DNA of 64,000 bases from Thermoplasmata archaeon. GTDB lineage: Archaea > Thermoplasmatota > Thermoplasmata > GCA-020350865. This document shows positions 5,851-43,400 of this stretch, one piece after another. Under the pieces are notes generated by a model. The model was not told the DNA's origin and made no database searches. It saw nothing but the letters and a program-made list of their open reading frames with translations. How positions within the stretch are numbered: the stretch's first letter is position 1; every line of letters starts with the position of its first letter. The position numbers and the translations under genes were made by a program. The stretch covers positions 4,217,086 to 4,281,085 of the forward strand of contig CP070751.1 in the NCBI GenBank assembly GCA_020348445.1. Direction: 5' to 3'.

Positions 5851-6021
5851 CTCTTTTTTACCTTTAAAACCAAAACAGGGATTAATTATTAACCGCACCA
5901 CGTCCTAGCATCGAAACCTGGATTTTAATTCTAGCGCCCCGCTAGGTAGCAAAGCTTAAGACAACTTTGTTTTCTCAGTATAACTTTGCTAAGAAGCCGG
6001 GGCAACTAATTTATATCCAAG

Positions 6022-6116
6022 CGCCCCGGCTGGGATTTGAACCCAAGTCCCAGGCTTGCTGCAGTCCCAAAGGAACCACGACAGGCCTGGATGATAGTCC
6101 GCTACACTACCGGGGC
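6022..6116 (-). tRNA. tRNA-Asp(GUC) with a 22-nt canonical (37/38) intron at 6057-6078
   Basis: Acceptor GCCCCGG/CCGGGGC, discriminator G, anticodon stem CAGGC/GCCTG, anticodon GTC (6080-6082), T-arm TTGGG-TTCAAAT-CCCAG. BHB: CUGU/GCAG helix with two 3-nt bulges; intron hairpin GGTTCC-TTT-GGGACT. Confidence 0.95.
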
Positions 6117-9212: not shown

Positions 9213-9266
9213 GTTATGGGGCGAATAAGTTCTTAATATAATAGCGAATCATTTGGGGAGGCTCAA

Positions 9267-16462: not shown

Positions 16463-16588
16463 TCCCCCCCTCTCAGATTGATATATTACTATATATTCTA
16501 CATCAAATAAATAAATATTGGAAAAAGCTTGGCTTTTTCCCTTTAAATCGGATAGTATGGGCGCTTTTGAGGTGATTATGAAGGATAT

Positions 16589-22656: not shown

Positions 22657-22771
22657 GCGGGGGTACCTGAGCTTGGAAAACAATAGGGCTTTTTGGCCTT
22701 ATTGGCCTAAAAGGGCAGGGCTTAGGACCCTGTTGCGTAGGCATACGAGGGTTCAAATCCCTCCCCCCGCA
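22657..22771 (+). tRNA. tRNA-Leu(UAG) with a 31-nt D-loop intron (about 21/22; 22680-22710)
   Basis: Acceptor GCGGGGG/CCCCCGC, discriminator A, anticodon stem CAGGG/CCCTG, TAG at 22723-25, long variable arm TGC-GTAG-GCA, T-arm GAGGG-TTCAAAT-CCCTC. Removing the intron restores AGCTTGGAAAAAGG. Intron hairpin CAATAGGGC/GCCTTATTG. Confidence 0.9.
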
Positions 22772-26849: not shown

Positions 26850-29111
26850 CTATGATGCTGCTCTCTCTCCACTTCTTAAAAACTTATCAATCGCTTTTGC
26901 AGCCTTCCTTGCACCTGCAACGGCCTCGATTACGGTCTGAGGCCCTGTGACATCATCACCTGCGGCATAGATTCCTTTTACCTTGGTCTCGCCTGTTTTC
27001 TCCTTGGCATCGATTGTGTTCCACTTGGTGATATCAACAGTTCCCTCTGGAACCCAGGAAAGATCAGGTGCCTGGGAAATCGCAGGTATAACGTTATCTA
27101 CCTTTATTCGATACTCAGAACCCTCAATGGGAACGGGTCTTCTTCTTCCGCTGGCATCAGGCTCACCAAGTTTCATCTTGATGATCTCCATGCCTACAAC
27201 TTTTCCATCCTGGCCAATTATCCTGGTGGGATTCCGAAGCAGGTGGTATTCCACACCCTCCTCCTTGCTCTCCTCAACCTCAAGAGGATCTGCGGGCATC
27301 TGCTCCTCTGCTCTTCGATACACCAGCAATACCTTCTTCGCACCCAGGCGAAGGGAGGTTCTCACAGCATCCATTGCAACATTTCCACCACCAATTACAG
27401 CCACTTTCTCCCCCAACTTAACCTCTTTACCAAGATTCACATCACGCAAGAAGTCAGTTGCAGGGATAACTCCTTCTAGATCCTCTCCCTCCAATCTCAT
27501 GGCTTTTGGAACATGGGCTCCAACACCCACGAAAATGGCATCGTAGCCTTCATCAAATAAATGTTTGAAGTTGAAATCAGGCCCGATTCTACGGTCGGTC
27601 TCCAACTTTGCTCCCAAGGATTTTATGTTCTCGATTTCTTGAGCTAACACCTTATCAGGCAGGCGGTACTCGGGAATACCCACGGCAAGCATTCCACCTC
27701 CTTTGGAGAGTGCCTCGAACATGGTTACATCATGTCCCATCTTGGTGAGCTCCCAAGCTACAGTCAATCCTGCAGGGCCTGCTCCGATTACTGCTACACG
27801 CTTTCCCGTCTTCCTTTCAGCCTTGATCTTGGGGAACTTACCGTGGTCTGCAGCATATCTCTTTAAAGTAGGTATGGCTATTGGATCACCATTTTTACCT
27901 CTTACGCAAACATTCTTGCAGAAGGCAGGACACACCCTCCCGCATGTGAGAGGTAGGGGATTTGTATCCAGTATGATTTCAAGTGATTTAGAAGGATCGC
28001 CCTCTGTTATAGCCTTAACATAACCTGGTACATCCTGGGATGCAGGGCAGGCATCCATGCATGGATGATCTTCGCATTGGAGGCATCTATTGGCTTCTTT
28101 AAGGGCTAACTCAGGTGTATAGCCCATGTTCACCTCTTCGAAGTTCGTTATCCTTGTAACAGGATCCTTTATTACAGCTGGAACGACTTCTTTTTCATTA
28201 TACACAGGGCAGACGTCCACACATTGATAGCATCTGATGCATTCACCGGGTGGTACCTTGTAGTATTTTAGGTTCTTGCTTATTTTTTCCTGAAGCTCCT
28301 TGGGCAGCTCCTCGAAATTCTCTCTTGAGAGGTTGGTTATACCCTCATCGTCTAGAGCCTTACTTACCTCGGAATCATTTAAAAGCTCGAATCTGGTTTC
28401 TGTAACGATATCAATTCCCATGGGACAGATATCATCGCATTTATGGCATTCCACGCATCGGTCCGAAGGCAGCTGCACCCTATTTAGACTGATTCTGTCC
28501 AGGATTGCTATGGATGCACCCAGGGGGCAAAGATATTTACAAAATCCTCTTGGCTCGTAGTATACTGCCATCAGTGCGATGGCCAGGAAAAACACGATAG
28601 GAAACACCAAAAGCCATGCAAATTCGTACGCAAAGGGTCCTGTGGCTCTGTAAAAACCCCCGATTGGACATACATCACACCAGGCATATCTACCCATTAC
28701 AAAGGCAGATAAAAAGAATCCAAGAAGAACACCGTACTTGATGTTAGTGTCCTGCAGAACCTCTGGTAATTCTCTCTTATCTTTTTTCAGTTTTCCAAAA
28801 AAGGTGAGCATGGTTCCATAGGGGCATATCCAGCTGCAAAACGCCCTGCCAAAAATGACGGTAAATATGATCAGACCTGCAACTGTAACTGTTATCAGAA
28901 TCAAATTGATATTAGAGCCAAAACTGGATCCTTCATTTAATTCCAATATCTCCCCAAACAGAATTCCAATTCTTTGGATATAAAAGAAAGGATCGATGAT
29001 GCAGACGGTTCCGTAAATGAAGAAGGCAAGAAAACCGAGAGGCAGCCCTATTAATACAATAAAGAATATGGCCCACCTGACGATGGTTCTTGATGTCTGC
29101 CTATCCAGCAT
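26850..29111 (-). CDS. Fusion: NapH/MauN-like membrane polyferredoxin plus GltD/SudA/NfnB-type NAD(P)H-dependent FAD/Fe-S oxidoreductase
   Basis: TM helices with GRAFCSWICPYG, AWCDVCPIG and GFCKYLCPLG; CVECHKCDDICP and CIRCYQCVDVCP; then EANRCLQC...CGRVCP..CKNVC, GAGPAG, VIGGGNVAMD, YRR, AAGD. Confidence 0.9.
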   Translation of the reverse strand: MLDRQTSRTIVRWAIFFIVLIGLPLGFLAFFIYGTVCIIDPFFYIQRIGILFGEILELNEGSSFGSNINLILITVTVAGLIIFTVIFGRAFCSWICPYGTMLTFFGKLKKDKRELPEVLQDTNIKYGVLLGFFLSAFVMGRYAWCDVCPIGGFYRATGPFAYEFAWLLVFPIVFFLAIALMAVYYEPRGFCKYLCPLGASIAILDRISLNRVQLPSDRCVECHKCDDICPMGIDIVTETRFELLNDSEVSKALDDEGITNLSRENFEELPKELQEKISKNLKYYKVPPGECIRCYQCVDVCPVYNEKEVVPAVIKDPVTRITNFEEVNMGYTPELALKEANRCLQCEDHPCMDACPASQDVPGYVKAITEGDPSKSLEIILDTNPLPLTCGRVCPAFCKNVCVRGKNGDPIAIPTLKRYAADHGKFPKIKAERKTGKRVAVIGAGPAGLTVAWELTKMGHDVTMFEALSKGGGMLAVGIPEYRLPDKVLAQEIENIKSLGAKLETDRRIGPDFNFKHLFDEGYDAIFVGVGAHVPKAMRLEGEDLEGVIPATDFLRDVNLGKEVKLGEKVAVIGGGNVAMDAVRTSLRLGAKKVLLVYRRAEEQMPADPLEVEESKEEGVEYHLLRNPTRIIGQDGKVVGMEIIKMKLGEPDASGRRRPVPIEGSEYRIKVDNVIPAISQAPDLSWVPEGTVDITKWNTIDAKEKTGETKVKGIYAAGDDVTGPQTVIEAVAGARKAAKAIDKFLRSGERAAS

Positions 29112-29137
29112 TTGTTCGCCTCTAAATATTCATTATA

Positions 29138-29302
29138 TTATCCTAATACATGCATAATCAAACCCACAACCACTCCACCAATCAAACCACCAACTATTGG
29201 TTCGGCATCGAAATTTCCAGATGCAGCCCACATTGCCATCCACAGCATAATGGCACACACGACACCGGATCCAATCATCACAGCCATTACCTTTCCCTTC
29301 AT
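29138..29302 (-). CDS. 54-aa two-TM microprotein (absent from ORF track)
   Basis: MKGKVMAVMIGSGVVCAIMLWMAMWAASGNFDAEPIVGGLIGGVVVGLIMHVLG*; GGGTGA RBS; fills the operon gap. Confidence 0.8.
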   Translation of the reverse strand: MKGKVMAVMIGSGVVCAIMLWMAMWAASGNFDAEPIVGGLIGGVVVGLIMHVLG

Positions 29303-29312
29303 TTGTATCACC

Positions 29313-29465
29313 CTACAACAACCACATCAGAAATCCAACCACAGCTCCACCTGTGATACCACCCAATTCCCAGGGTTTTCTGTCAAGAGCTACGTTTATC
29401 ATCATACCGCAGAGGATTCCCGCGACAATCATTACACCCAATAATATGATCCTTTCATTTGCCAT
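29313..29465 (-). CDS. 50-aa two-TM microprotein (absent from ORF track)
   Basis: MANERIILLGVMIVAGILCGMMINVALDRKPWELGGITGGAVVGFLMWLL*; GGAGG RBS just after the upstream stop. Confidence 0.8.
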   Translation of the reverse strand: MANERIILLGVMIVAGILCGMMINVALDRKPWELGGITGGAVVGFLMWLL

Positions 29466-29480
29466 TTTATGCCTCCATCA

Positions 29481-31067
29481 TCATATCATCGTAGCTCCAA
29501 CCACGAACGCGATCACCAATCCAGTGACACCTGTTGCAAACAGTATCCCGCACTGCTGAGATTTTCCAGAAGAACCGATCTCAACACCCATGTTTCCTTC
29601 ACCAATACCCCCTATTCCACCCAAGGGTGAGGGGCCGCACGAGGCTGCCGCGTTCACTATAAAGGCCCCAAGAACCACGGGTAAAACGATTTGATTTCCT
29701 GTTATCTCAACCAAAGCCTCGCCATAAACATATACACCCGGAACCAGGGCTGCAGCAAGTATTCTACCGCAGGGCATGGGCATTATAGTGGGGATATTCA
29801 CCAGAATTATGGCAACACCAAGGTAACCTAGTATAGCAAATCCGGCGATCTCGAATTCTGCAAGCCCTCTAAGAAGTATGAGAAGAACGTCGAATCCCCC
29901 TGCCAGACCCATGGCCCCAGCCACAAGAAAACCTGCAGTCATGGCCATAATCGGATGCAGAATCACACCTGCCATCAGATCCTGTATTTTGGCTCTCCCA
30001 ATGAGCATGATCACCATGGCCAGAACAACTAAAATCGTTTGAATAGGTATCACTGGTTGTAGAATAAGGGTAAGGGCCAATACTATCATGAAGAGGCCAA
30101 GTGATATGTATCCGTTTTTAAGATGTGTGTCCATCCTGGACATCCGTTTGAATAGTGATTCTTTTTCCTTTGGACTTTCAGGGGTGAGAGGCTCAGGTAT
30201 GGGCTCGTCGTCAGGGGGCGGTGGTTCCTCTTCATCATCAGGAGGTGGTGGAAGTCCCTCCTCTTCTTCCTCTTTTACCTTTACAGTCAACTCCTCCCCA
30301 CCATCATTTGCCACCTCTATTTCCTCGTCTTTCTTCTTTATTTCCTCCTTCTTCATATCAGCAGGAAAAAGCGGGGTGACGAATTTCATGACAAGAGCAC
30401 AAACACCTGTGCAGATGATTATCCCAGTCTGCTGGGGATCTGAGAGAGAGGCCAAAGGCAGTTTTGCCAGACCTTCGCCTAAAAGACCAATTCCTCCCAA
30501 CGGTGATGGACCGCACGATGCTGCGGCATTGACAATGAATGCAAAAACGATGACTCCCACCATTCTTGGATCGCCAAGACGTCTTGCCACCTTGTATCCT
30601 AGTCCCAAAGCTGCTGGCATCAGAGCCGCTGCCAAAATCCTACCGCATGGCATTGCTATAATGGTTGGCATGTTAATAAGGAGTGTGACAGTGCCAGTTA
30701 TGCCAAAAACTGCCACTCCTTTTACCTTCAATTGCTCAAGACGTGTTAGTGCATCGGCTGCTGCATCGAAAGCACCCGCAACCTCCAGGGCACCGGCAGC
30801 CAAAAAACCCGCAGCAAGGGCGGTTATGGGATGTATAATTATCATGCCAATGAGGTCAATGAAACCGATTTGGCTTATGGATGGATCCAAGATATTGCCT
30901 ATGAATGCGAGGATGGCTATGACGAATGCAGTTAGAACCAAGGCAGATTGTATGGGCAGTCTATCTTGAGGTATAAATCCCAATAAGGATGCTACTATCA
31001 CAACAAAGAATAGTATCAGGGCGATAAGCCCTATTATGAACCAAAGCTCCATTCCTAATACTACCAT
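29481..31067 (-). CDS. Internally duplicated multi-TM transporter-like protein (IT/CitM-like) with conserved Cys motifs
   Basis: Two copies of IIHPIxA..AGFL.AGA, N(M/I)PTI..MPCGRILAAAL.P and FIVNAAASCGPSPLGGIG..GEG, joined by an acidic Pro-rich linker. Confidence 0.8.
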   Translation of the reverse strand: MVVLGMELWFIIGLIALILFFVVIVASLLGFIPQDRLPIQSALVLTAFVIAILAFIGNILDPSISQIGFIDLIGMIIIHPITALAAGFLAAGALEVAGAFDAAADALTRLEQLKVKGVAVFGITGTVTLLINMPTIIAMPCGRILAAALMPAALGLGYKVARRLGDPRMVGVIVFAFIVNAAASCGPSPLGGIGLLGEGLAKLPLASLSDPQQTGIIICTGVCALVMKFVTPLFPADMKKEEIKKKDEEIEVANDGGEELTVKVKEEEEEGLPPPPDDEEEPPPPDDEPIPEPLTPESPKEKESLFKRMSRMDTHLKNGYISLGLFMIVLALTLILQPVIPIQTILVVLAMVIMLIGRAKIQDLMAGVILHPIMAMTAGFLVAGAMGLAGGFDVLLILLRGLAEFEIAGFAILGYLGVAIILVNIPTIMPMPCGRILAAALVPGVYVYGEALVEITGNQIVLPVVLGAFIVNAAASCGPSPLGGIGGIGEGNMGVEIGSSGKSQQCGILFATGVTGLVIAFVVGATMI

Positions 31068-31087
31068 ATTTTACACCAAATCGTATC

Positions 31088-31447
31088 CTATGTGTTTTTA
31101 CCTCTAATGTTTGCACAGGCCTGCACAATCAGCCTGTTTCCAACCTTTGTCACACCAATTCGTGAGCCTATGTTTATTTTTTCAATACAAAGGGTGCAAC
31201 AGCTGATTTCAGCGGAAATGATGTCGCCAGAATCTGTTTTCACCTTCACAGGAATGCTGGTGCTACCTTTGCGTTTGCCTCTGCATGAATTGCAGTTTCC
31301 ATCGAAGATGGGCTCGAATTCTATTAAATTCCCTTTAATCTGGGGAAAGAACATCATCTTAAGCTGCATGATAAAGAATATTCCGAGTAAGGCCAAAAGG
31401 CCCATGATAATGAGACTGTCCTCCAACCTCATTCCATCGAAAATCAA
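31088..31447 (-). CDS. Small membrane-anchored Cys-rich protein
   Basis: One N-terminal TM; CNSC, CCTLC and a further Cys; translationally coupled to the upstream gene. Confidence 0.75.
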   Translation of the reverse strand: MIFDGMRLEDSLIIMGLLALLGIFFIMQLKMMFFPQIKGNLIEFEPIFDGNCNSCRGKRKGSTSIPVKVKTDSGDIISAEISCCTLCIEKINIGSRIGVTKVGNRLIVQACANIRGKNT

Positions 31448-32244
31448 AGCTTTGCCACCTCCTGACCAATGTCTTTGAAGAACATTGCGATCATGCTTTG
31501 AGGAGTAATTGCCCTTGCACCTGATTCAGAATCAGTCTTAAGACCTTCATCAATTTGAAGTTCACAAAAGGGACAGGCGGCAATCACAATATCGGCACCT
31601 GTTTCTTCGATACATTCCAGTTTCCTTTTTCTTATTGTGTACGACAGCTCCTTCTGGGATGCCCTAACACCCCCTCCAGCACCGCAGCATCTATCTGAAT
31701 CATCCATCTCGATGTATTCAAGGTTCGGGAAGGCCCCGACAATGGTTTCATGTATCTTTCTTGCATCGATAAGCATGCCGCGATGCATATGACAAGGATA
31801 GTGAGCAGTGACCTTCAAGTTGGGTATAGGTCGCATGAGGTCCTTTTGATAAAGCTCCCCGCTTCTGGCCAAATCGTACAATACCTCTATGAGATGATAG
31901 ACATGGATACTCATCTTTTCTGCTTCTTCAGTCTTGAGCTGGGAGCCGCAGCCTGGGCAGCCTGAGACGATCTGATCCACTCCTGCCTTCTTCACCAGAT
32001 CCAGGTTGTACATCCTGCATTCAATACTCACATCCTCACCGCCGGATCTCATCACTGGAGCACCGCAACATCTTGCATTATCAAGAACCATGTAATCGAA
32101 GCTAAACTTGTCCAAAACAAATCTTGTGGTGTACCTGCTTCCCACCATCCTTCTTGGCATTGTGCATCCTTCATACAATACAAATTTACCCCAATCCTTG
32201 GCTGTTTTGCTGTCAATGACAGGCTTTGTAACCCTGGTAGTCAC
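31444..32244 (-). CDS. CCG-domain (HdrB/GlpC-like) Fe-S protein
   Basis: LYEGC, RCCG, SGCPGC; HYPCH, RCCGAGGG, AACPFC. Confidence 0.88.
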   Translation of the reverse strand: MTTRVTKPVIDSKTAKDWGKFVLYEGCTMPRRMVGSRYTTRFVLDKFSFDYMVLDNARCCGAPVMRSGGEDVSIECRMYNLDLVKKAGVDQIVSGCPGCGSQLKTEEAEKMSIHVYHLIEVLYDLARSGELYQKDLMRPIPNLKVTAHYPCHMHRGMLIDARKIHETIVGAFPNLEYIEMDDSDRCCGAGGGVRASQKELSYTIRKRKLECIEETGADIVIAACPFCELQIDEGLKTDSESGARAITPQSMIAMFFKDIGQEVAKL

Positions 32245-32783
32245 TTGTTCTCCTCTCCCTCTCCTATCTTAAAGTCGTCGTACTTTGTGATCTTTGCAAA
32301 GCCCTTTAGGAATTTGGTGATGGTCTCCTTTTGTTCTTTAATATCTGGAAGCAAAACAGGTTCCTTGTCAAATACATTTCCGTAATTTGAAGCCATTTTA
32401 ATAATATGTTTATGGGGGCCCATTTGGCCCATTCCCTCCTTAGCAAGGGATGCCCTGAATTTGTCCATATCATGTTTTACATTAAGTCCTCTGGGGCAGG
32501 CCTCTACACAGCTCATGCATGACGTGCAGGAAAACAACCCCCCTTCCTCAGCCCTCTCCTTGGTGCCCGATCTCGATGTTACCTCTATGCCAAGTGGGCC
32601 CATGTACCTGTCAGGTTGTGCGGCTCTAACAGGACACACTGCAACACATTGCTGGCACTGCATACATAAAACTGTTCCTTCATGGCCCCTAATACTCGCG
32701 TATAACATGATGAGAAACGGCACCGATGCCAAGATCATTGCCACGGCAGCAAAGAGATTCCATTGATCCCAGATTCCCAACAT
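32241..32783 (-). CDS. Membrane-anchored HdrC-like 2x[4Fe-4S] protein
   Basis: N-terminal TM; CMQCQQCVAVCP; LFSCTSCMSCVEACPRGL. Confidence 0.88.
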   Translation of the reverse strand: MLGIWDQWNLFAAVAMILASVPFLIMLYASIRGHEGTVLCMQCQQCVAVCPVRAAQPDRYMGPLGIEVTSRSGTKERAEEGGLFSCTSCMSCVEACPRGLNVKHDMDKFRASLAKEGMGQMGPHKHIIKMASNYGNVFDKEPVLLPDIKEQKETITKFLKGFAKITKYDDFKIGEGEENK

Positions 32784-32787
32784 GCGT

Positions 32788-33237
32788 TCACCTGTTCTGT
32801 CCTATTATATCCCTTTCATTTCTAAGTGTTGGCCCGTTCCACAACTTTGTTCTCTCGGTTCCAGGGGTCCCACCCAGGGGTTCATAGGCCTCACCCAAGG
32901 CATCTGTGGGACAGTTTGCGAGACATACACCACAAATTTCATAGCTTGGGCATTTTTGTCTCGTTTCCTTGGTCAATGTTGGATAGAAGATCTCCTTGGA
33001 TTTTATTGCCTTGAAGGGGCAGACGCTGGCACATATTCCGCATCGTGCACAGAGACCTACGAAAGCATTGCTGTCGATTTTATCTACCTCTTGTTGGGTA
33101 AGGGATCCAGCCCCTGGGATGTACCGCTTTTCAGCCTTGACCCTATTTACCCCGCTGTTCTGCAATCCTAGGGATACCAAAAGCGAGGCCCCGGCAACTC
33201 CAAGGACCTTCATAAATGACCTTCTATTCATTGCCAT
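32788..33237 (-). CDS. Tat-signal ferredoxin (MauM/NapG-like)
   Basis: NRRSFMKVLGVAG; CARCGICASVCP; CPSYEICGVCLANCP. Confidence 0.85.
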   Translation of the reverse strand: MAMNRRSFMKVLGVAGASLLVSLGLQNSGVNRVKAEKRYIPGAGSLTQQEVDKIDSNAFVGLCARCGICASVCPFKAIKSKEIFYPTLTKETRQKCPSYEICGVCLANCPTDALGEAYEPLGGTPGTERTKLWNGPTLRNERDIIGQNR

Positions 33238-33249
33238 CTTTTTACACCT

Positions 33250-33810
33250 TTAGGGATTAATCCATTGTATTGTATCATAACCGCACATCTTGAAGCATTT
33301 CTGACATCCTATGCACCCAGTAACTTCCCTGGGGTCACCCCAGTCTCTGTCTAGATCAGAATATTTTGGATCTTTTTTTTGAGGAAATCCAGGCATTTTT
33401 CTATTCTCAGGTGTCTTTCGAAATTTTATTGCATCCACAGGACATACCTCTACGCACGGGCCTCTGCAGAATTGGATATCCTGCTGATTATCCTCGGTGA
33501 TATCCTCGTACTCACCAGTTTCCAGGTTTGGTAGGTGGTATGCGCATGCCCTTCTATTTATGAAGGGAAAACCTCCTGATTTGGCCTCGGATACCGCCCT
33601 ATCAGGATCCCCTGTCTCTGCATCCACCTTTGAATTCCAAATCAATTTTCTTTTGCTATCGATCTCGGTATCTGCCTGAGAATCTATGAGATCAGATTCT
33701 GTGGGTGAGAATATCTCTCCAATGCTCATTCCCATGACACCGGCCACACCCAGTATTCCCAGGTGTTTCATGAATCTTCTTCTGTCCATGGGTGTTGGAA
33801 TCTTTTTCAT
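33250..33810 (-). CDS. Tat-signal ferredoxin-like protein
   Basis: DRRRFMKHLGILGVAG; RRAC, CRGPCVEVCP, CIGCQKCFKMCG. Confidence 0.85.
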   Translation of the reverse strand: MKKIPTPMDRRRFMKHLGILGVAGVMGMSIGEIFSPTESDLIDSQADTEIDSKRKLIWNSKVDAETGDPDRAVSEAKSGGFPFINRRACAYHLPNLETGEYEDITEDNQQDIQFCRGPCVEVCPVDAIKFRKTPENRKMPGFPQKKDPKYSDLDRDWGDPREVTGCIGCQKCFKMCGYDTIQWINP

Positions 33811-33834
33811 TCTATGCTTCTCCTACAATCGATC

Positions 33835-34668
33835 TCATCTATATTTTTCATCGGCCTTAACATCTCTAATGAATTTTGTGACTGGTAGGGCGACAGGGCA
33901 TGCGGGCTCGCATCTAGAACATAATGGATCATAGAATGCAGAGTCTTTAGCGCGCATCTCGTAAATATCGGTTAGTTCTGCCTCCTTGTTCTCATCCTCC
34001 AGCTCCTTAATTTTATCTTTAGCATCATTGATCCGCATGGGATCAAGCCTCTCGAACTCCTTCTTCTCTCCAGAAACTAAAAGCCCTTCCAGTGTTCGTG
34101 AAATATGGTATTTTTCATAACCATCAACAATCAGCCAGTTGTCGGGATCTACCTCAGATACTGTTGCTTGGCTTGAAATCGCCCACCTATTATCTGCAAA
34201 AGCCCTTCGGATTTCATTATTTACAGATCCAACTATTAGATGATCCTCAAATTCTGGTCCAAGGGTAAATAACTCGATGTTCTCCTTCTTTTTAACCTCA
34301 CTGACCACAACCTTCATGTATTCATCTCTTGCTAGAAGACTGTCCAAGGTCATTCTCCTTGCCTCCTCCCTGTTTCCAATGAGCCTGTTGTATCTTTTGA
34401 TGTTGTACTGTGCCAACATTCTTCTATTGGGATTGTTCACCCTGGCAGCAACAAGATAGCCAGAAGGATCGAGCTTCCAGGGGCATGGCGATGCACAGGC
34501 CCTGCATTCGTAGCAGGTTAGAGAATCAGGATGACCAGAGGATATGGACGTTACAGCCAGAGATCCGAGATGGCCGCCCAAGGCGATGAAAGCACCAACG
34601 TTCAAGAGCTTCCATGTGCTTCCCATGAACTCCCGTCTTGTGATCTCAGGATGCCTCTTTTCCTTCAA
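33835..34668 (-). CDS. Tat-signal 4Fe-4S dicluster protein with a long insertion
   Basis: TRREFM plus hydrophobic helix; CYECRACASPCP; DPLCSRCEPACP; TTG start with AGGTGA RBS. Confidence 0.8.
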   Translation of the reverse strand: MKEKRHPEITRREFMGSTWKLLNVGAFIALGGHLGSLAVTSISSGHPDSLTCYECRACASPCPWKLDPSGYLVAARVNNPNRRMLAQYNIKRYNRLIGNREEARRMTLDSLLARDEYMKVVVSEVKKKENIELFTLGPEFEDHLIVGSVNNEIRRAFADNRWAISSQATVSEVDPDNWLIVDGYEKYHISRTLEGLLVSGEKKEFERLDPMRINDAKDKIKELEDENKEAELTDIYEMRAKDSAFYDPLCSRCEPACPVALPVTKFIRDVKADEKYR

Positions 34669-35699: not shown

Positions 35700-36728
35700 T
35701 CACTTTTTATAAGAAATCAAAATATACAATGACACGATACACATTCCAATTACCAGTACTGGACCGACTATCAGTCCCGCCCAGAAGATCAGGCCAAGTA
35801 TACCAAATAAGAAAAGTTTGATAATATCTCTTTTTTCCATTGGCTTTTCTTCCTTTAACGCTACGTTAAGGATGGCATAACCTAGGATAATGGGTATTGC
35901 TGCAAAAATCAATGTCACGACTACAGAAGCACCTACTGCCGATCTGGATAGTGCAATTGACATCTGATGCAGAACCATAAAACCGCTACCCACATAAATG
36001 AGCGAAGATAGATAAACCAACCAGGCAAAAGTCGTCTTTGGGGGATTGATAAAATTGAATTTACCAATGTTTTTTATTTTCCAAATCATAATGCCCATAC
36101 CAAAAATCAATATGATCATCATGGGGGCAAATATAACCGCCAGGCTCTGTCCTTCCCAGACCCGAATGTTGATGACATCGATTGGTACCAGCAACCATTC
36201 ATCAATATCGAATTTCTCTACATACCCGATGGCAATTCCGAATTTACCCGTATTATTTGGTTCATAAACTGCAATATAGTAAGTCCCAGTTGCATTCACT
36301 TCCTCGTCGTAGTCCACTGTATAATAGTAGCTTGCTGGGGTAAAGGGCTCGTATTCGGCCTCTCCAGATCTCTTTCCCTCAAGGACCTCAAAATTATAAC
36401 CCTCGGGAACCTCAACATAATCAGGTATTGTTCCCTTGCTTTCGATATTTGAGGCCATGATAACGCAATTTGGAGAGAACTTGCCTTCCTCGGGGGTATA
36501 CAATGATATTCTTAATCTGTCCCCCTCTTTTAAGGTGAAGCGGTAATATTTTGCCTGTCCCAGTTCAGATATCTCATCATATATGGCCCAGGATTTTGTT
36601 GGCTCGTGAACATGAAGTGCCCTTTCGATACTGTCATTGTCCCCTGACGATATCGGAACATGAGCTGAGGCACTAGGAATTAGAAAAATGGTAATAATAA
36701 CTATTAGAAAGAGGTATGTTCTTTTCAT
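35700..36728 (-). CDS. Secreted N-domain plus multi-TM hypothetical protein
   Basis: Signal ending ASAH; YEPFTPASYY; four C-terminal TM helices. Confidence 0.75.
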   Translation of the reverse strand: MKRTYLFLIVIITIFLIPSASAHVPISSGDNDSIERALHVHEPTKSWAIYDEISELGQAKYYRFTLKEGDRLRISLYTPEEGKFSPNCVIMASNIESKGTIPDYVEVPEGYNFEVLEGKRSGEAEYEPFTPASYYYTVDYDEEVNATGTYYIAVYEPNNTGKFGIAIGYVEKFDIDEWLLVPIDVINIRVWEGQSLAVIFAPMMIILIFGMGIMIWKIKNIGKFNFINPPKTTFAWLVYLSSLIYVGSGFMVLHQMSIALSRSAVGASVVVTLIFAAIPIILGYAILNVALKEEKPMEKRDIIKLFLFGILGLIFWAGLIVGPVLVIGMCIVSLYILISYKK

Positions 36729-36767
36729 GGGCATTGTAATTGAATAAATTGTATATAAAATAGTTCA

Positions 36768-39700
36768 TTATTCTGGTGGAGGTGGTAACTCCTCATCCTG
36801 TAGGACTGGCTTTTCTTCCTCATTTTCCAAATGTATATCATCCTGAGCTTGCATTGACTGTTCTTCTTCATAGGGGGTCTTCACATTATCTTCTTTCACG
36901 TTTGCTGAATCTTCCCCTTCCTGGGCTTCTGGAGGTTTACCCCAGAAAAGAGGCTCTTCTTCCTTATATTTGCCCCTTCTTTTCAAATATATCAAAATCA
37001 GAATGATGATGACTGAAATTACCGGTAATATGATGAATATATCAAGCAATGAATCCTCTGTCTCCTCCTTTTCACCAACATCCTGGGGTTCCGCCATGGT
37101 GGTCCCCTGTACCCCCTGCGAATATTGCGATTCAACACCGTCTGAGTCCATGGCTGTTATTACGTACCAGTATGTTTTCTCATCATGTAGGTCAGAATCA
37201 GTAAATGATGTCAATTGACCGTATACTGTTCCAATTATCTCGTAATCTATGCCATCAGTTGACCGATAGATATTGTAACCAATAATATCTTCTGCGGTAC
37301 TTGGATTCCAGCTTATGGTCAATTTTCCTTTTTCATTTGGAGGTGTTACAATTATATTGGTAGGGGGAGAGGGGGGTATTATCTCGATTGTATCCTTTAT
37401 TACATCGGGACCTTGTTTCTCTTCGGTTGTTATTAGATGGTATCCCTGACTGTCTAATGTACTGAAATAATAGGAATAATTGGTACCTTCCTCGAGGATA
37501 ATCGAGTAAGAGTAAATCGCCCCTTGCAAATAAGAGCCGCTTTCATAGTTCATTACAATTGGATCTTCAGATATCTGACTTCCATCCTTATTAATATGCA
37601 GACTCGGACTGCCGGAAGGTGGAGGTAAATTACCTAAATCGGTGTATTTAACCTTGAAAACGAAGGTAGTGGAAGAATTACCTGATTCTGGGTTGACTCC
37701 ATCAGAGATATAATTGTCTTCACCAATCCAGTTTAATGTTGCTGGATAATCCACATGGAACTTTATCTCTTCCCATTCGCTCCATTCATAGCGATCAAAT
37801 ACCCTAAGAGCGTACCAATAATCGGTGTCCTCTAAAAGAGGCAGACCTGCATAGATTATGGCATTGAAAGCACCATCTTGTGGTCCTGTCAACCACATAT
37901 CATCTTGACCTGAAGCAGAGCCAACTCTGACCTCATAATGCTGCTGCGTAAATCCTCCATCGCTATCTATGTAGGACCCACCAAGTACTGGTGTGGCAGT
38001 AGAAATGTGAGAGATTTCTGTTGTTCCCTCTGCATATCCATCAACAGTCAGATTGTATACTACAGAAAGATCATTCATATGAAACTTTATCTCTTCCCAG
38101 AAACTCCAGTCATTTCCATCGAAAACCCTGATTCCAAACCAATAGTCCTCACCGTCAATGAGTTCGGAACCTGAATAAGTTATCTGATTATCGTCTCCAT
38201 TAAAGGATCCTGGGCTCCACATATCAAATGCACCTGAGGATGAACCCACCCTGATTTCGTATCTCACCTGGGCATCTGAAGAATCGGAATCAAAGAAGGT
38301 CCAACCAAGATCGGGAGTATGATCAGTAATATGGATGATATCAGGGTTCCCCTCGAAAAATCCTTGGACATTCAGGTTTCTTGCTTCAGGAAGAGAGTTT
38401 GGTGGGCTTTGCGTGGTGAACCTCCAGATTTCTGTCCAATTCCATTCCCAACCATCTGTTGCATTCACAAACCAAAAGTATGTTGCAGATGGGGAAGTGG
38501 AAAAGTCTGCAGATAGAGAAAGTGTGGTGAAGTTGCTTGCCAAATATGGAGCTGTTGGGGGATTATCGATATCAATAAACCAATAATATGTTATTGTATC
38601 TCCTTCTGAATCAGAACCACTTTCGGTCCAATCAAGAATTTGTTGTGCATTGCTTGGAATCTCCGAGTCATGGGATGGATCAACTGGTAATATAGGAGCA
38701 GGAGGCAAGGAATTCATGTGAAACTGTGTTTGATTCCAAGTGCTCCATTCATAGCCATCGAAAACTCGGATGCCGAACCAGTAATCGATGCCATCCATTA
38801 AAGGAAGTCCTGCATATACCATACTCGTTTGTGAACCAAACAAAGGCCCAGTTGCCCACATATCTGATGAACCTGATGAGGAACCAATCCTTATATCGTA
38901 TTCAATCTGAGTGTCCCCCACATCCAAATCCCATGGTAACCAAGCTAAATCAGGGGTGTGGTCGGTTATATGCATTATGTCTTGAGTGCTATATGAAAAT
39001 CCTGAAACTGTCAAATTACGAGCAGCAGGTTTTGAGTTCGTATGAAACATGGTTTCATTTACTAAGCTCCATTCAATTCCATCGTACACTAAAATCCCGA
39101 ACCAGTAATCTGTGCCATCAACTAATGGAGAACCTGCGTAAACCACCGTGTTTCCCCCACCCACCTGGGGTCCTGGTGCCCACATGTCAGAAAGTCCGGA
39201 TGCCGTGCCAACCCTAACCTCGTACTGCTGCTGGAAATCTCCTGAATCAGAATCAAAGAAGGACCAGCTCAGATCTGGTGTGGGATCTGTAATATGCAAT
39301 ATATCTGATGAATCCTTGAAAAATCCTGATACAGTTAAATCCCGTACTTCGGGGGGTATGTTGACAGATCCAGCAGTGGTGAAGTTCCATACAATTGTTT
39401 GGGTCCATTCCCAACCGTCTGTTACATTTATTATCCAATAGTAATTGGTACCTGGTGAAGTGGGGAAGGAAGAGGATGAGGTACCATTGGTTGTGCTGTT
39501 GGCAATATATGGAAAAGCAGGAGGATTGTCTGTATCCACATACCACCAATACATGATCGTATCTCCCTCTGAATCGGATCCACCTGCTGTCCAGCTTAAT
39601 TTCTGCGCAGGGCTTTTAGTGATGTTTGAGTCATCAGGGGGATTGAGCGGTGGAATAGGAATCGGCGGCAAGGCATTCATGTGAAACAGGGTTTCATTCC

Positions 39701-42700
39701 ACCCACTCCAAGTGTTTCCATCAAATACTCTGATTCCGAACCAATAGTCCACTCCATCGATCAACGGTGATCCAGAGTAGATGTCGGTATTTCCAGCACC
39801 ACCCTGGGGTCCAGGTGCCCACATGTCTGAAAAGCCCGATTGCGTACCCACTCTTACTTCGTACTGCTGCTGTGTGTCTCCGCCATCAGAATCAAAGAAA
39901 GACCATGCCAACTCCGGCAAGTGATCTAAAATATGCATGATCTCTGAAGTGCCCTCCGAGAATCCAGAAACCATCAGATCCAAAGCCTCTGGTGGATTAT
40001 TGACAACGGCAGATGTTGTGAAGTTCCATAAAATGGAGGTGTTCCATTCCCAACCATCTGTGGCATTTAAATACCAGTAATAATCAGTTGCTGGTGACGT
40101 GGCAAAAGATAAGGAAGAGGTTCCTGTTGTTGTGCCGTTTTCAAGATAAGGTGGATTCGGTGGATTATCTGTATCAATATACCACCAATAGGTGATTGTA
40201 TCCCCCTCAGAATCAAATCCCCCAGTTGTCCAACTCAGAGTCTGAGCCGGGCTGCTTGGTATGTTTGCATCATCGGGAGGGCTTAAAGGAGGAGCAGGGG
40301 CAGGTGGAGGGGCATTCATGTGAAATAGGGTTTCGTTCCATTCACTCCATTCATAGCCATCATGAACCCTGACACCGAACCAATAGTCTGTTCCGTCAAG
40401 CAAAACTTTACCTGTATATACCTCAGATGTGGTACCTCCAGGAGAAGGTCCCAGAGTCCACATGTCTGAAAATCCAGTTTGTGTCCCAACTCTTATTTCG
40501 TACTGTCCTTGTGAATCTCCAATTTCCAAATCCCAGTATGACCAAGCCAAATCAGGGGTGTGATCAATTATATGCAAAATTCCTGGAGTACCTGTTGCAA
40601 ATCCCTGGACCAACAAATCATGAGCAGCTAAACTGTTCATATGAAACTGTGTTTCATTCCACAGGCTCCACGTATTTCCATCAAATACCCTGATTCCAAA
40701 CCAGTAATCCACTCCATCCCGTAAAACAAGTCCTGCATACACAACTGAGTTTATCCCTCCAGCCTGAATGCCCGGAGACCACATGTCAGAAAGACCCGAG
40801 GAAGTACCAACCCTTATTTCGTATTGCTGCTGGGTATCTCCTCCATCTGGATCTGAGAATATCCATTCCATTTGGGGTGCGTGATCTATGAGGTGCATAA
40901 TGCCTGTTGTTCCATTGGAAAATCCTGCCACAGCATGATCAATTGCTTCGGGTGGATTGTTCACAATGGCTGATGTTGTAAAGTTCCATATTATTGTCGT
41001 ATTCCATTCCCAGCCGTCGGTTGCATTGACATACCAATAATAATCAGTTGCGGGTGATGTGGAAAAAGAATATGAAGAGGATCCTGTTGTAGTTCCGTTT
41101 GCCAGATAGGGTAAGACAGGGGGGTTATCTGTATCCACGTACCACCAATATGTTAAGGTATCCCCCTCAGAATCCGCACTTCCTGGGCTCCAACTTAATG
41201 TCTGGGCTGGGCTGCTTGGAACATTGCTATCATCAGGTGGGCTTAGAGGAGGAACAGGAGCAGGAGGCAGTGAATTCATATGAAATTGAGTTTCATTCCA
41301 TTCGCTCCATTCGTATCCGTCGTATACCCTTATGCCAAACCAATAATCTGTTCCGTCAAATAAAGTAAGGCCTGCGTACACTTCCGACGTCGTAGCCCCT
41401 ATAGAAGGTCCAAAACTCCACATATCAAAAAGACCTGATCCCGTGCCAATTCTGATTTCGTACTCCTGTTGAGAATCCCCAGCCTCGTAATCAAAAAATA
41501 TCCATTCCAAATCGGGAGTATGGTCAGTGATATGCCCAATTCCAAGGGATCCGGTTGCAAATCCTTGAACAGTAAGTGCTTGAGGCTCAGAAGGTGCATT
41601 CATATGAAATTGTGTTTCATTCCATTCGCTCCATTCAAAACCATCATAAACCCTTACCGAGAACCAGTAATCTGTTCCATCAACCAGTGGAAGACCTGCA
41701 TAAGTTACGGAATTTGTAGGGCCGATTTGGGGAGGTAAAGACCACATATCCGAAGCACCCGGGGATGAACCAACTCTCACTTCATACTGCTGCTGTGTAT
41801 CTCCCCCCTCGTAGTCAAAGAATGTCCAACCTAGATCGGGACTCGAAACTGTAATGTGTAATATGCCAGGGGTTCCTTGTGTGAATCCTTCCACAGTTAG
41901 ATCCCTTGCTTCAGAGAGATTATTCAGATGGAATTGGGTTTCGTTCCATGAGCTCCATTCATAGCCATCATAGACTCTGATGCCAAACCAGTAATCATTT
42001 GAGTCGATTAAAGGAAGACCTGCATATAACTCAGAACTTGCACCACCTGCGGAAGGCCCGAATGTCCACATATCAGATAATCCTGGTCCTGTACCCACTC
42101 TGATTTCGTACTGCTGTTGGGAGTCACCTTCCAAATCAAAAAATGTCCATCCAAGATCGGGTGTATGATCAGTGATATGTAGAATGCCGTTGGTACCATC
42201 TGCAAAACCCTGAACTGTTATATCCTGAGCTTCAACAATATTCATATGAAACTGAGTTTCATTCCACTGGTTCCATTCATAGCCATCGAAAACCCTTATT
42301 CCAAACCAGTAGTCAGTTCCATCCAGCAACGTGGATCCTGCATATATTTCTGAAGTTGAAGCACCACTCTGAGGTCCAGGGGCCCACATGTCAGAAAGAC
42401 CAGATCCTGTGCCCACTCTTATTTCATACTGAGATTGCGAATCCCCTTCACCATCCCAGAAGGCCCACGCCAAATCTGGTGTGTGATCTGTTATATGAAG
42501 AATACCTGTGGTTCCTTCTGAAAAATCCTGTACTGTCAAGCCCTGAGCCTCAAGACTGTTCATATGAAATTGAGTTTCATTCCACACACTCCAGTCTGTT
42601 CCATCGTTTACTCTCACACCGAACCAGTAATCAGTGTTGTCTATAAAAGTAGAGCCGGCATATACAACTGAGCTGACTCCTCCAGATTGCGGTCCAGGTG

Positions 42701-43400
42701 CCCACATATCTGAAAGCCCAGATCCGGTCCCAACCCTGACATCGTACTGCTGCTGTGAATCTCCTCCATCAGAATCGGTGAAAGTCCAGCCTAGATCAGG
42801 GGTGTGATCTGTGATATGCATAATCCCAGTTGTTCCATCTGCAAATCCCTGAGCAGAAAGATCTTTAGCTTCAGGAGGGTTGTTTGCGGTGACCACCTCA
42901 GGAATTGTATCTGACCAGAAGTTCCATAGATCACCTGCATCCTTCTTATTATCATCATTTGCGGTCATTGCCGCAACCCACACGTTGACTGTCCCCGTCC
43001 CCGAGGATGGTGCTGTCCAACTTACAGCCCAGGTCCTAACAAGATCATTTGATTGGGTTGCTTGGTCTTGTGGAACGTTGATGTTGACATTTGAATCCGA
43101 AGTGCTTAGGGTGCCTGCTGATACTTCAAGATTGAATCCACCTTGTGTTCCAGATGCGCCTCCACTGACAGTTATCGTAATTGGGTAGGTGGTTGATGGT
43201 GTGTATTCTGCAGGAAACCCGGTGACTGTGATTATGACACTTACATCAGGATTTGCATCATGACAGGTACATCCTGTTTGAGCTGCATCATACATATCAC
43301 TGCTTTTTCCTTTAACACCCCAAACAGCCATGACCATAGCGATTACAATACAAAATCCTAGCCCACATATCTTCTTTAAATTCCTGTTCATTCTCAACAT
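36768..43400 (-). CDS. 2210-aa membrane-anchored surface protein: Reeler-like domain with CxCH, 12 type-A and 4 type-B Ig/FN3-like repeats, FN3, TM, acidic tail
   Basis: Signal peptide; GCTCH; repeats HITDHTPDL.W...QQQYE.RVG...SDMW...DYWFG.RV.DG.EWS.WNETQFHMN; TM IFIILPVISVIIILILIYL followed by KRR. Confidence 0.9.
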   Translation of the reverse strand: MLRMNRNLKKICGLGFCIVIAMVMAVWGVKGKSSDMYDAAQTGCTCHDANPDVSVIITVTGFPAEYTPSTTYPITITVSGGASGTQGGFNLEVSAGTLSTSDSNVNINVPQDQATQSNDLVRTWAVSWTAPSSGTGTVNVWVAAMTANDDNKKDAGDLWNFWSDTIPEVVTANNPPEAKDLSAQGFADGTTGIMHITDHTPDLGWTFTDSDGGDSQQQYDVRVGTGSGLSDMWAPGPQSGGVSSVVYAGSTFIDNTDYWFGVRVNDGTDWSVWNETQFHMNSLEAQGLTVQDFSEGTTGILHITDHTPDLAWAFWDGEGDSQSQYEIRVGTGSGLSDMWAPGPQSGASTSEIYAGSTLLDGTDYWFGIRVFDGYEWNQWNETQFHMNIVEAQDITVQGFADGTNGILHITDHTPDLGWTFFDLEGDSQQQYEIRVGTGPGLSDMWTFGPSAGGASSELYAGLPLIDSNDYWFGIRVYDGYEWSSWNETQFHLNNLSEARDLTVEGFTQGTPGILHITVSSPDLGWTFFDYEGGDTQQQYEVRVGSSPGASDMWSLPPQIGPTNSVTYAGLPLVDGTDYWFSVRVYDGFEWSEWNETQFHMNAPSEPQALTVQGFATGSLGIGHITDHTPDLEWIFFDYEAGDSQQEYEIRIGTGSGLFDMWSFGPSIGATTSEVYAGLTLFDGTDYWFGIRVYDGYEWSEWNETQFHMNSLPPAPVPPLSPPDDSNVPSSPAQTLSWSPGSADSEGDTLTYWWYVDTDNPPVLPYLANGTTTGSSSYSFSTSPATDYYWYVNATDGWEWNTTIIWNFTTSAIVNNPPEAIDHAVAGFSNGTTGIMHLIDHAPQMEWIFSDPDGGDTQQQYEIRVGTSSGLSDMWSPGIQAGGINSVVYAGLVLRDGVDYWFGIRVFDGNTWSLWNETQFHMNSLAAHDLLVQGFATGTPGILHIIDHTPDLAWSYWDLEIGDSQGQYEIRVGTQTGFSDMWTLGPSPGGTTSEVYTGKVLLDGTDYWFGVRVHDGYEWSEWNETLFHMNAPPPAPAPPLSPPDDANIPSSPAQTLSWTTGGFDSEGDTITYWWYIDTDNPPNPPYLENGTTTGTSSLSFATSPATDYYWYLNATDGWEWNTSILWNFTTSAVVNNPPEALDLMVSGFSEGTSEIMHILDHLPELAWSFFDSDGGDTQQQYEVRVGTQSGFSDMWAPGPQGGAGNTDIYSGSPLIDGVDYWFGIRVFDGNTWSGWNETLFHMNALPPIPIPPLNPPDDSNITKSPAQKLSWTAGGSDSEGDTIMYWWYVDTDNPPAFPYIANSTTNGTSSSSFPTSPGTNYYWIINVTDGWEWTQTIVWNFTTAGSVNIPPEVRDLTVSGFFKDSSDILHITDPTPDLSWSFFDSDSGDFQQQYEVRVGTASGLSDMWAPGPQVGGGNTVVYAGSPLVDGTDYWFGILVYDGIEWSLVNETMFHTNSKPAARNLTVSGFSYSTQDIMHITDHTPDLAWLPWDLDVGDTQIEYDIRIGSSSGSSDMWATGPLFGSQTSMVYAGLPLMDGIDYWFGIRVFDGYEWSTWNQTQFHMNSLPPAPILPVDPSHDSEIPSNAQQILDWTESGSDSEGDTITYYWFIDIDNPPTAPYLASNFTTLSLSADFSTSPSATYFWFVNATDGWEWNWTEIWRFTTQSPPNSLPEARNLNVQGFFEGNPDIIHITDHTPDLGWTFFDSDSSDAQVRYEIRVGSSSGAFDMWSPGSFNGDDNQITYSGSELIDGEDYWFGIRVFDGNDWSFWEEIKFHMNDLSVVYNLTVDGYAEGTTEISHISTATPVLGGSYIDSDGGFTQQHYEVRVGSASGQDDMWLTGPQDGAFNAIIYAGLPLLEDTDYWYALRVFDRYEWSEWEEIKFHVDYPATLNWIGEDNYISDGVNPESGNSSTTFVFKVKYTDLGNLPPPSGSPSLHINKDGSQISEDPIVMNYESGSYLQGAIYSYSIILEEGTNYSYYFSTLDSQGYHLITTEEKQGPDVIKDTIEIIPPSPPTNIIVTPPNEKGKLTISWNPSTAEDIIGYNIYRSTDGIDYEIIGTVYGQLTSFTDSDLHDEKTYWYVITAMDSDGVESQYSQGVQGTTMAEPQDVGEKEETEDSLLDIFIILPVISVIIILILIYLKRRGKYKEEEPLFWGKPPEAQEGEDSANVKEDNVKTPYEEEQSMQAQDDIHLENEEEKPVLQDEELPPPPE

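Follow-up and report, generated by a model that had tools for sequence, protein, structure and literature searches.

Gene content of the operon

The 64,000-nucleotide window analysed here (contig CP070751.1, positions 4,217,086 to 4,281,085) belongs to an uncultivated sediment archaeon of the Thermoplasmatota, whose genome is a single contig of 5.16 Mb with an estimated completeness of 82%; DNA of the window is detected in sediment metagenomes. Ten co-directional open reading frames (ORFs) on the minus strand, here named g1 to g10 in order of transcription, span window positions 26850-34668 and encode iron-sulfur (Fe-S) and membrane proteins. The intergenic gaps from g1 to g10 are 24, 12, 4, -4, -4, 20, 15, 1 and 26 bases. 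An AT-rich spacer of 220 bases with a GGTGA ribosome-binding site lies upstream of g1; a scan for sigma-70 type promoters and terminators performed no better than on shuffled sequences and does not apply to an archaeal host. The operon is flanked by unrelated genes, DUF357 and MsrB on its upstream side and PRiA4-like and Schlafen-like ones on its downstream side.

The original prediction, made from the sequence alone, described these genes as a trans-membrane Fe-S redox operon without counterpart among named complexes. Its ten ORFs and every domain call were reproduced. Lack of conservation as a unit had been named beforehand as a result that would refute the prediction, and the gene set passes this test: it recurs in the genus of the host, in other Thermoplasmatota and, in rearranged order, in Altiarchaeota. 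Synteny of the entire set in further genomes puts the observation far beyond chance. No family model matched the set, and the full-text literature searches, which included PMC9012536 and PMC6797604, found no description of the set or of the g7 family. None of the ten proteins reached the equivalog cut-off of any NCBIfam model, and g6, g7, g8 and g9 are members of no Pfam or NCBIfam family. Searches of both databases with the operon proteins matched no HdrA, molybdopterin, hydrogenase, cytochrome or other haem-binding family.

The first three genes encode ferredoxin-like proteins with twin-arginine signals. g1 (33835-34668; 277 amino acids (aa); signal TRREFMG) is a split dicluster protein similar to HdrC and SdhB-C, with a CxxCxxCxxxCP motif at residues 52-63 and a CxxCxxxCP motif at residues 250-258 in which Asp replaces the first Cys. 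g2 (33250-33810; 186 aa; DRRRFMKHLG) is ferredoxin-like, and g3 (32788-33237; 149 aa; NRRSFMK) is a 2x[4Fe-4S] ferredoxin of the NapF/NapG type (Fer4, 29.9 bits; weak NapF and NapG matches) whose Cys motifs are regular, whereas those of g1 and g2 are irregular. All three have the features of substrates of twin-arginine translocation (Tat), with RREF, RRRF and RRSF preceding hydrophobic stretches, and the genome encodes TatC (205 bits), one of the two components whose presence the original prediction had asked to be confirmed. The signals of g2 and g3 also score above the TIGR01409 cut-off of 16.7 bits (19.3 and 21.8 bits, respectively), while that of g1 was judged by eye only. RR motifs occur on g1 to g3 in every Thermoplasmatota homologue. 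Because of these signals, g1 to g3 should face outward.

The next two genes encode an HdrC/HdrB-like pair. g4 (32241-32783; 180 aa) has an N-terminal transmembrane helix followed by a dicluster domain, predicted to be cytoplasmic, with two CxxCxxCxxxCP motifs (Fer4_8, 38.3 bits); it aligns to residues 136-255 of TfrB. g5 (31444-32244; 266 aa) contains two complete CCG motifs of the pattern C-x(31-34)-CC-x(34-36)-CxxC (C27...C59C60...C95xxC98 and C151...C186C187...C224xxC227; PF02754, 109 bits). All five Cys residues of each CCG domain are kept, as needed for non-cubane [4Fe-4S] clusters, and judging by these motifs g5 is the sole catalytic-type site of the operon. The closest solved relatives of g5 are HdrB proteins (E 3e-25), and its matches to the C-terminal half of TfrB (165 bits) and to HdrB (TIGR03288, 114 versus 345 bits) stay below the cut-offs.

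g5 differs from HdrB itself in its subequivalog score, the lack of an HdrA partner and its apparently non-methanogenic context. A methanogenic heterodisulfide reductase was rejected as an identity for the pair: the operon lacks HdrA and no McrA was found in the host genome (the single contig of 82% estimated completeness), so CoM-S-S-CoB is an unlikely substrate. The sHdr-LbpA sulfur oxidation system was also rejected, the operon, to which the search for LbpA in this genome was confined, containing no sHdrA, GcvH-like LbpA or lipoate ligase. g4 and g5 together resemble a split HdrD that is anchored in the membrane beside integral membrane partners, as in HdrDE, DsrMK and HmeCD. However, g6 to g9 match no cytochrome b family of the NarI/HdrE type and the fold of g7 is DASS-like; the membrane partners here are a DASS-fold protein with four cysteines, a transmembrane Cys protein with a putative oligonucleotide/oligosaccharide-binding (OB) fold, and microproteins. 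The host genome has 41 CCG-domain matches, which belong to about 20 Hdr-like proteins, along with many other redox genes. For a member of the Thermoplasmatota that is apparently not methanogenic and has a large genome, this complement of Hdr-like proteins is unusually rich.

The last gene, g10 (26850-29111; 753 aa), is a fusion. Residues 1 to about 305 form a NapH-type polyferredoxin with four predicted transmembrane helices, two CX3CP motifs (CSWICP at 92-97 and CKYLCP at 191-196) and 4Fe-4S motifs at 219-230 and 291-302. This half matches Fer4_5 (PF12801) with 55.6 bits, above the cut-off of 22, but remains below the NCBIfam NapH cut-offs (TIGR02163, 85.4 versus 213 bits; PRK09477, 78 versus 234 bits). 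Residues 310-753, approximately, form an NAD(P)H flavoprotein of the NfnB/GltD type (Fer4_20, 122 bits; Pyr_redox_2, 99.7 bits), which likewise does not reach the NCBIfam equivalog cut-offs; its best solved relatives are NfnA and NfnB, matched by residues 311-747 with E 1e-113 to 1e-116.

With NapGH, MauMN and NosGH, the operon shares the four predicted helices, CX3CP motifs and cytoplasmic 4Fe-4S motifs of g10, as well as a Tat-type dicluster ferredoxin (g3). It differs in that NapAB, MauAB and NosZ were not matched in the operon or its flanks, and a Nap, Mau or Nos system was rejected because the operon has no terminal enzyme. A further difference from NapGH is the fusion itself, which suggests NAD(P)H rather than quinol as the electron source. 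The flavoprotein half aligns end-to-end with NfnA, NfnB and NfnI-L (E 1e-107 to 1e-116) and has the two-cluster Fer4_20 domain and the folds for flavin adenine dinucleotide (FAD) and NAD(P) known from NfnAB, SudAB and GltD. Unlike NfnAB, the operon encodes no small NfnA-type [2Fe-2S]/FAD subunit, and its flavoprotein domain shares a polypeptide with a membrane polyferredoxin.

The remaining genes encode small or unassigned membrane proteins. g6 (31088-31447; 119 aa) has one transmembrane helix and a small beta-barrel with two CxxC knuckles (C52/C55 and C84/C87). g7 (29481-31067; 528 aa) is a membrane protein in which a Pro-rich, acidic linker connects two homologous halves. g8 (29313-29465; 50 aa) and its paralogue g9 (29138-29311; 57 aa from GTG, or 54 from the next ATG) are microproteins with two transmembrane helices, g8 with a glycine zipper. 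Judged by the positive-inside rule and by signal motifs, the probable location of the whole of g5, of the g6 barrel, of the g4 Fe-S domain and of the flavin and Fe-S domains of g10 is the cytoplasm.

Conservation of the gene set in archaea and bacteria

The full ten-gene order is found in three other species of the host genus (loci L008, L009 and L012), with 60-92% protein identity. Within the GTDB class of the host, g7 was found in this genus only (4 of the 401 genomes sampled). This patchy distribution suggests horizontal spread, and it limits phylogenetic inference for g7. More distant Thermoplasmatota (L010, L011, L013, L014 and L019-L022) keep the families, but g7 is split over two genes, each of about 240 aa, and the three Tat proteins are placed either upstream or downstream of the set. 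The first g7 half is often extended by an N-terminal extracellular domain of 300-700 aa of the CARDB (PF07705) or beta-helix (PF13229) type (L010, L011, L013 and L014), which points to extracellular contact, perhaps with a surface or a solid. NapH is unfused in four of these loci (334-345 aa) and fused to GltD in L022; across other lineages, unfused NapH proteins measure 268-345 aa. The NapH-GltD fusion occurs in about 27 protein clusters and is the last gene of the same operon type in the two contexts that were fetched, and it is confined to some Thermoplasmatota lineages.

In Altiarchaeota (L025, L037 and L039) the genes are rearranged to g6-g7-g8-g9-g1-g2like-g3like-NapH-HdrC-CCG, and a gene for a DsbD_2 protein comes next. 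DsbD_2 has four matches in the host genome, all far from the operon, and none in the window. In L037 the genes immediately before the module (L037:7167-10004) encode NadA, a cysteine desulfurase (IscS) and NifU_N (IscU). L025, and only L025, has a GcvH-like protein before the module and a lipoate-protein ligase (LplA) after it (9215-9634 and 16094-17155). Four metagenome-assembled genome (MAG) contigs labelled 'Halobacteriota' keep only g4-g5-g6-g7a-g7b-g8; their surroundings have neither NapH nor exported proteins. Because these loci keep only g4 to g8, the HdrCB pair and the Cys-bearing membrane core can, as far as gene content tells, stand alone.

Bacteria, among them Desulfobacula toluolica, D. 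phenolica and Acidobacteria, have a reduced core comprising a g8-like protein, a g6-like protein, g7, a g1-like protein, a protein of 214-239 aa at the position of g2 and a g4-like ferredoxin. Besides this core, the clusters (L023, in the D. toluolica Tol2 sequence FO203503.1 at 1519158-1540612, L024, L026, L027, L028 and L038) contain two homologues of the reductive dehalogenase RdhA, DsbD_2, a sigma-54 activator and an exported protein of the DUF59 (FeS_assembly_P) family. L028 and L038 also hold a protein of 629-630 aa with Prenyltrans/SQHop_cyclase and DUF4430 domains, which we take to be transcobalamin-like. The RdhA homologues (TIGR02486, 141-169 bits) have three N-terminal transmembrane helices and no Tat signal. 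RdhA homologues with N-terminal transmembrane helices constitute the 'hybrid' reductive dehalogenase class of Atashgahi 2019 (PMC6797604), a paper that says nothing of the genes neighbouring these enzymes. The g6-g7-g8-g1-X-g4 core of bacteria, where X is the protein at the position of g2, shares its cluster with two such homologues, whereas the window contains none. Desulfobacula is a cultured, tractable host of the g7 core.

Homologues of g1 (157-161 aa; E 1e-16 to 3e-26) follow g7 in Altiarchaeota and bacteria. Their RR motif, which all Thermoplasmatota homologues have, is present in one of the three Altiarchaeota homologues (L025) and in none of the bacterial ones; the bacterial g1-like proteins have plain N-terminal transmembrane anchors in place of RR signals. 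The C-terminal Fe-S region of g2 aligns with protein X of Altiarchaeota and bacteria (201-239 aa; hhalign 95.6%); the similarity can be demonstrated solely over this motif, and the orthology of g2 and X rests on gene position. g3 occurs, in the loci seen, only where NapH occurs. A g4 homologue is present in every locus family, including those of bacteria. A g6 homologue precedes g7 wherever it is detected, and it is absent or undetected in L020-L022, L026 and L027. The microprotein family is represented by one or two copies beside g7 in all archaeal and bacterial loci examined. Both microproteins are thus real genes, as originally proposed; their single Cys, however, is not conserved, whereas the glycine zipper is.

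Because the partners (RdhA, GltD, NapH and the exported proteins) vary between lineages, the operon looks like a conserved core with exchangeable redox modules. The claim that the operon is self-contained has accordingly become doubtful: the bacterial core lies beside RdhA, the GltD fusion is limited to certain lineages, and the 'Halobacteriota' modules do without NapH and exported proteins.

Elsewhere in the window, a 2210-aa ORF lies upstream of the operon on the same strand (36768-43400, minus strand) and is followed by a 344-aa ORF (35700-36734) without a Pfam match. A tRNA-Asp gene (6021-6116, minus strand) is called at 96 nucleotides, a length that suggests an intron, and a second tRNA (22696-22763, plus strand) has a marginal Rfam score of 29.3 bits against a gathering threshold of 29.

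The g6-g7 membrane core

The two halves of g7 are 43% identical, and each contains the motifs MPCGR and SCGPSPLGG. A search for members of the g7 family gave 460 hits. The AlphaFold2 model of g7 (predicted local distance difference test score (pLDDT) 79.6; predicted TM-score (pTM) 0.78) has a DASS/ion-transporter fold. Among solved structures, Foldseek matched it to VcINDY (5uld; E 1.3e-6), NaS1, Pho90, TRAP SiaQM and ArsB (10tp; TM-scores 0.56/0.66), with overall TM-scores of 0.5-0.66 for the DASS-type matches. A structure search of the Atlas agrees, with TM-scores of 0.56-0.60 to CitMHS and DcuC clusters, and at the sequence level there is a weak match to Pfam CitMHS (25.5 bits, below the cut-off of 31.9). 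Since the DASS fold is an inverted repeat, the two halves are probably oppositely oriented.

g7 shares with the DASS superfamily the two-repeat elevator fold with helical hairpins, and its small transmembrane partners recall the Q subunit of TRAP transporters. It differs in that its Cys motifs (MPCGR and SCGPSPLGG) would stand where the Ser-Asn-Thr motifs are placed, in that its halves are 43% identical or, in other lineages, separate genes of about 240 aa each, and in that it sits in an Fe-S operon. The invariant residues among 31 archaeal and bacterial homologues include C141, R143 and C185 of the first half, C433, R435 and C477 of the second, and H79 and H371. C141 is located in a predicted loop that joins helices 122-137 and 142-164, C185 in one that joins helices 168-183 and 193-200, and the second half has the same pattern. 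By analogy with the DASS architecture, these loops may correspond to its hairpin tips and broken helices, which make up the site for anion and cation.

C84 and C87 of g6 are invariant in 18 sequences. The g6 family has no Pfam match even at E 1, and a wide VIA-align search with its barrel returned generic OB-like barrels (ModG, DUF35 and ribosomal proteins) with Z of at most 7.3, within the stated background of the tool. In a Thermoplasmatota MAG (L019:2445-4325), a single reading frame of 626 aa encodes a g6-like protein together with the first g7 half; this fusion, of the Rosetta-stone type, supports physical association of g6 and g7. The modelled g7-g6 complex has an interaction prediction score from aligned errors (ipSAE) of 0.62, against 0.00 for the best control; this mark is reached by 58 of 80 solved complexes and by 2 of 110 mismatched pairs. 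Contact agreement between runs is at least 71% and the pLDDT of the partner at least 65. In the model, residues 141, 143-152, 432-433, 477 and 480-485 of g7 face residues 50-65 and 82-90 of g6, which include both CxxC knuckles. The predicted complex supports docking of the Cys-knuckle domain of g6 onto the cysteines of g7.

In RnfA/RnfE, NqrD/NqrE and CcdA/DsbD, homologous and oppositely oriented membrane halves contribute Cys residues near the centre of the membrane and move electrons or reducing equivalents across it. The operon proteins have no Pfam or NCBIfam match to RnfA/RnfE or NqrD/NqrE, g7 has none to DsbD or DsbD_2, and no fold relation exists in either case; g7 could be a functional analogue of both groups. 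The g6-g7-g8/g9 core is the part for which the literature searched gave no description, and each of the named systems shares one module only with the operon; we infer the function of the core from the fold, the conserved cysteines and the partners.

Possible functions and significance

Our preferred reading, a tentative one that we rate somewhat short of an even chance, is that the ten genes encode a single haem-free membrane Fe-S oxidoreductase complex with a cysteine relay formed by g6, g7 and the microproteins. The NfnB-like domain of g10 would be a point of NAD(P)H entry or exit, at which NAD(P)H would feed FAD and the Fe-S chain of the NapH domain. The NapH domain, which with g3 resembles the NapH/NapG pair, would in turn pass electrons to the exported ferredoxins or receive them, in the way suggested for that pair. 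The trans-membrane relay of g7, g6 and the microproteins might carry a thiol-reactive cargo, in the form of a sulfane-sulfur or disulfide-type anion, to the HdrB-like non-cubane clusters; alternatively, it might hand them reducing equivalents as dithiol/disulfide, as CcdA does. The HdrB-like g5 would perform the only catalytic step, on a thiol or disulfide. Of the original prediction, this retains NAD(P)H entry, an HdrB-type site and outward ferredoxins, which are borne out by the NfnA/NfnB match, both CCG motifs and the three Tat proteins. A dedicated transporter for the substrate, also proposed there, agrees with the DASS/ion-transporter fold of g7, although the cysteines, the docking of g6 and the constant Fe-S company fit a redox role equally well. 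The cysteine relay fits the fold of g7, HdrB chemistry and the minimal 'Halobacteriota' module.

Several observations weigh against the oxidoreductase complex. The bacterial versions of the core have no CCG protein and have reductive-dehalogenase homologues instead, so the core is not tied to disulfide chemistry in general; carriage of a cargo by the relay would require a single class of cargo to be the substrate of different enzymes. Three exported ferredoxins are left without a terminal partner. The g7-g6 model is a prediction from our own alignments, with an approximate calibration. Finally, a plain g4-like ferredoxin cannot alone reduce a disulfide, which favours, for the bacterial versions, an intramembrane metal centre. 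In this alternative, which we consider rather unlikely for the system as a whole, the four Cys residues of g7, two from each half, would hold an Fe-S or Fe centre in the middle of the membrane, as in NqrD/NqrE and RnfA/RnfE, and electrons would pass from g4 through g6 and the centre to g1 and g2, maybe coupled to ion movement or to the elevator motion. The core is always found amid Fe-S carriers, and its variable partners (HdrB-like, RdhA-like and NapH-GltD proteins) are all redox enzymes. In the bacterial versions, which lack NapH, g6, g7 and g8 are the sole conserved membrane parts able to bridge the outward g1 and X and the inward g4-like ferredoxin. The homologous g7 halves, separate genes in other lineages and oppositely oriented if the inverted-repeat fold holds, would suit such a centre, the g6 knuckles are modelled against the g7 cysteines, and the invariant R143 and R435 adjoin Cys residues and could compensate for the charge of a cluster held by four Cys. 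Fe-S assembly genes are also near some versions (IscS-IscU in L037; exported DUF59 in bacteria). Against this, every solved protein that the g7 model matched is a solute carrier, the g7 cysteines stand in loops that probably correspond to the anion-binding site of the fold, the 'Halobacteriota' versions have no nearby outer-face partner, and g7 has no sequence relation to RnfA/RnfE or NqrD/NqrE. A specific form of this proposal, to which we give slightly less credence still, makes g7 a transmembrane electron device rather than a solute carrier, its Cys4 Fe-S or Fe centre, at the presumed anion site of the fold, being fed from the cytoplasm by the docked g6 and moved between the faces of the membrane by the elevator motion, perhaps with ion coupling.

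Other readings assign less to the core. The operon might wire NAD(P)H and the membrane to an outer-face or membrane enzyme encoded elsewhere, with the HdrB-like g5 in an electron-transfer or regulatory role. The bacterial clusters, in which the core accompanies two hybrid RdhA homologues of the PMC6797604 class, the absence of a terminal partner for the exported ferredoxins in the operon, and the host's wealth of CCG proteins (about 20) and other redox genes are consistent with such delivery. We nevertheless regard it as improbable: no RdhA above the family cut-off was found in the host genome (top match 104.5 versus 160 bits), the operon ends without a further enzyme in three archaeal phylum-level groups, and g5 keeps all ligands of both non-cubane clusters, that is, the catalytic site of HdrB. 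Lower still is the probability that g7 is an ordinary anion or metalloid transporter for a thiophilic solute (thiosulfate, polysulfide, arsenite or thio-oxyanions), with the Fe-S proteins processing the solute or acting independently. Its DASS/ArsB/TRAP fold points that way; the microproteins could serve as a scaffold like the TRAP Q subunit, other lineages have extracellular CARDB/beta-helix domains at the N-terminus of the first half, and the g6 barrel has its highest, though non-significant, structural match in the molybdate-binding ModG (Z 7.3). Yet Fe-S partners accompany g7 in both archaea and bacteria, even where the gene order is rearranged, no fetched locus has g7 without ferredoxin-like partners, and g6 is fused to g7 in L019 and modelled as docking on it. 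The least probable reading, which we consider very unlikely, is Fe-S trafficking, in which the Cys4 site would carry an Fe-S cluster or aqueous FeS across the membrane and thereby mature extracytoplasmic Fe-S proteins not exported by Tat, or take up mineral FeS. We know of no precedent for trafficking of this kind. It would suit the plain transmembrane anchors, without RR signals, of the bacterial g1-like, X and RdhA proteins, the exported DUF59 and DsbD_2 proteins of the bacterial clusters with the additional Prenyltrans/DUF4430 protein of L028 and L038, and the position of IscS-IscU directly before the module in L037. However, g1 to g3 of the host have good Tat signals and could be exported with their clusters in place, and exported proteins are missing from the surroundings of the 'Halobacteriota' modules.

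Anaerobes that live close to the thermodynamic limit rely on redox complexes in their membranes. To our knowledge, those described use haem, a quinone-binding cytochrome b, or Rnf, Nqr or complex-I modules. The gene set described here contains no haem, cytochrome b or Rnf/Nqr/complex-I module. Three or more phylum-level groups of archaea carry it, and reduced versions occur in Acidobacteria and in Desulfobacula, a sulfate reducer. If the oxidoreductase complex exists as proposed, it would be the first NAD(P)H-linked system of the NapH type. The core could also explain the electron supply to the enigmatic 'hybrid' reductive dehalogenases of marine bacteria. Should g7 prove to be an electron device, it would represent a haem-free, quinone-independent analogue of RnfA/RnfE and NqrD/NqrE that arose in a transporter fold. 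More broadly, if an elevator-fold protein with four cysteines moves electrons or thiol-bound sulfur across the membrane, four unnamed protein families would gain a function and a new principle of membrane bioenergetics would be established.

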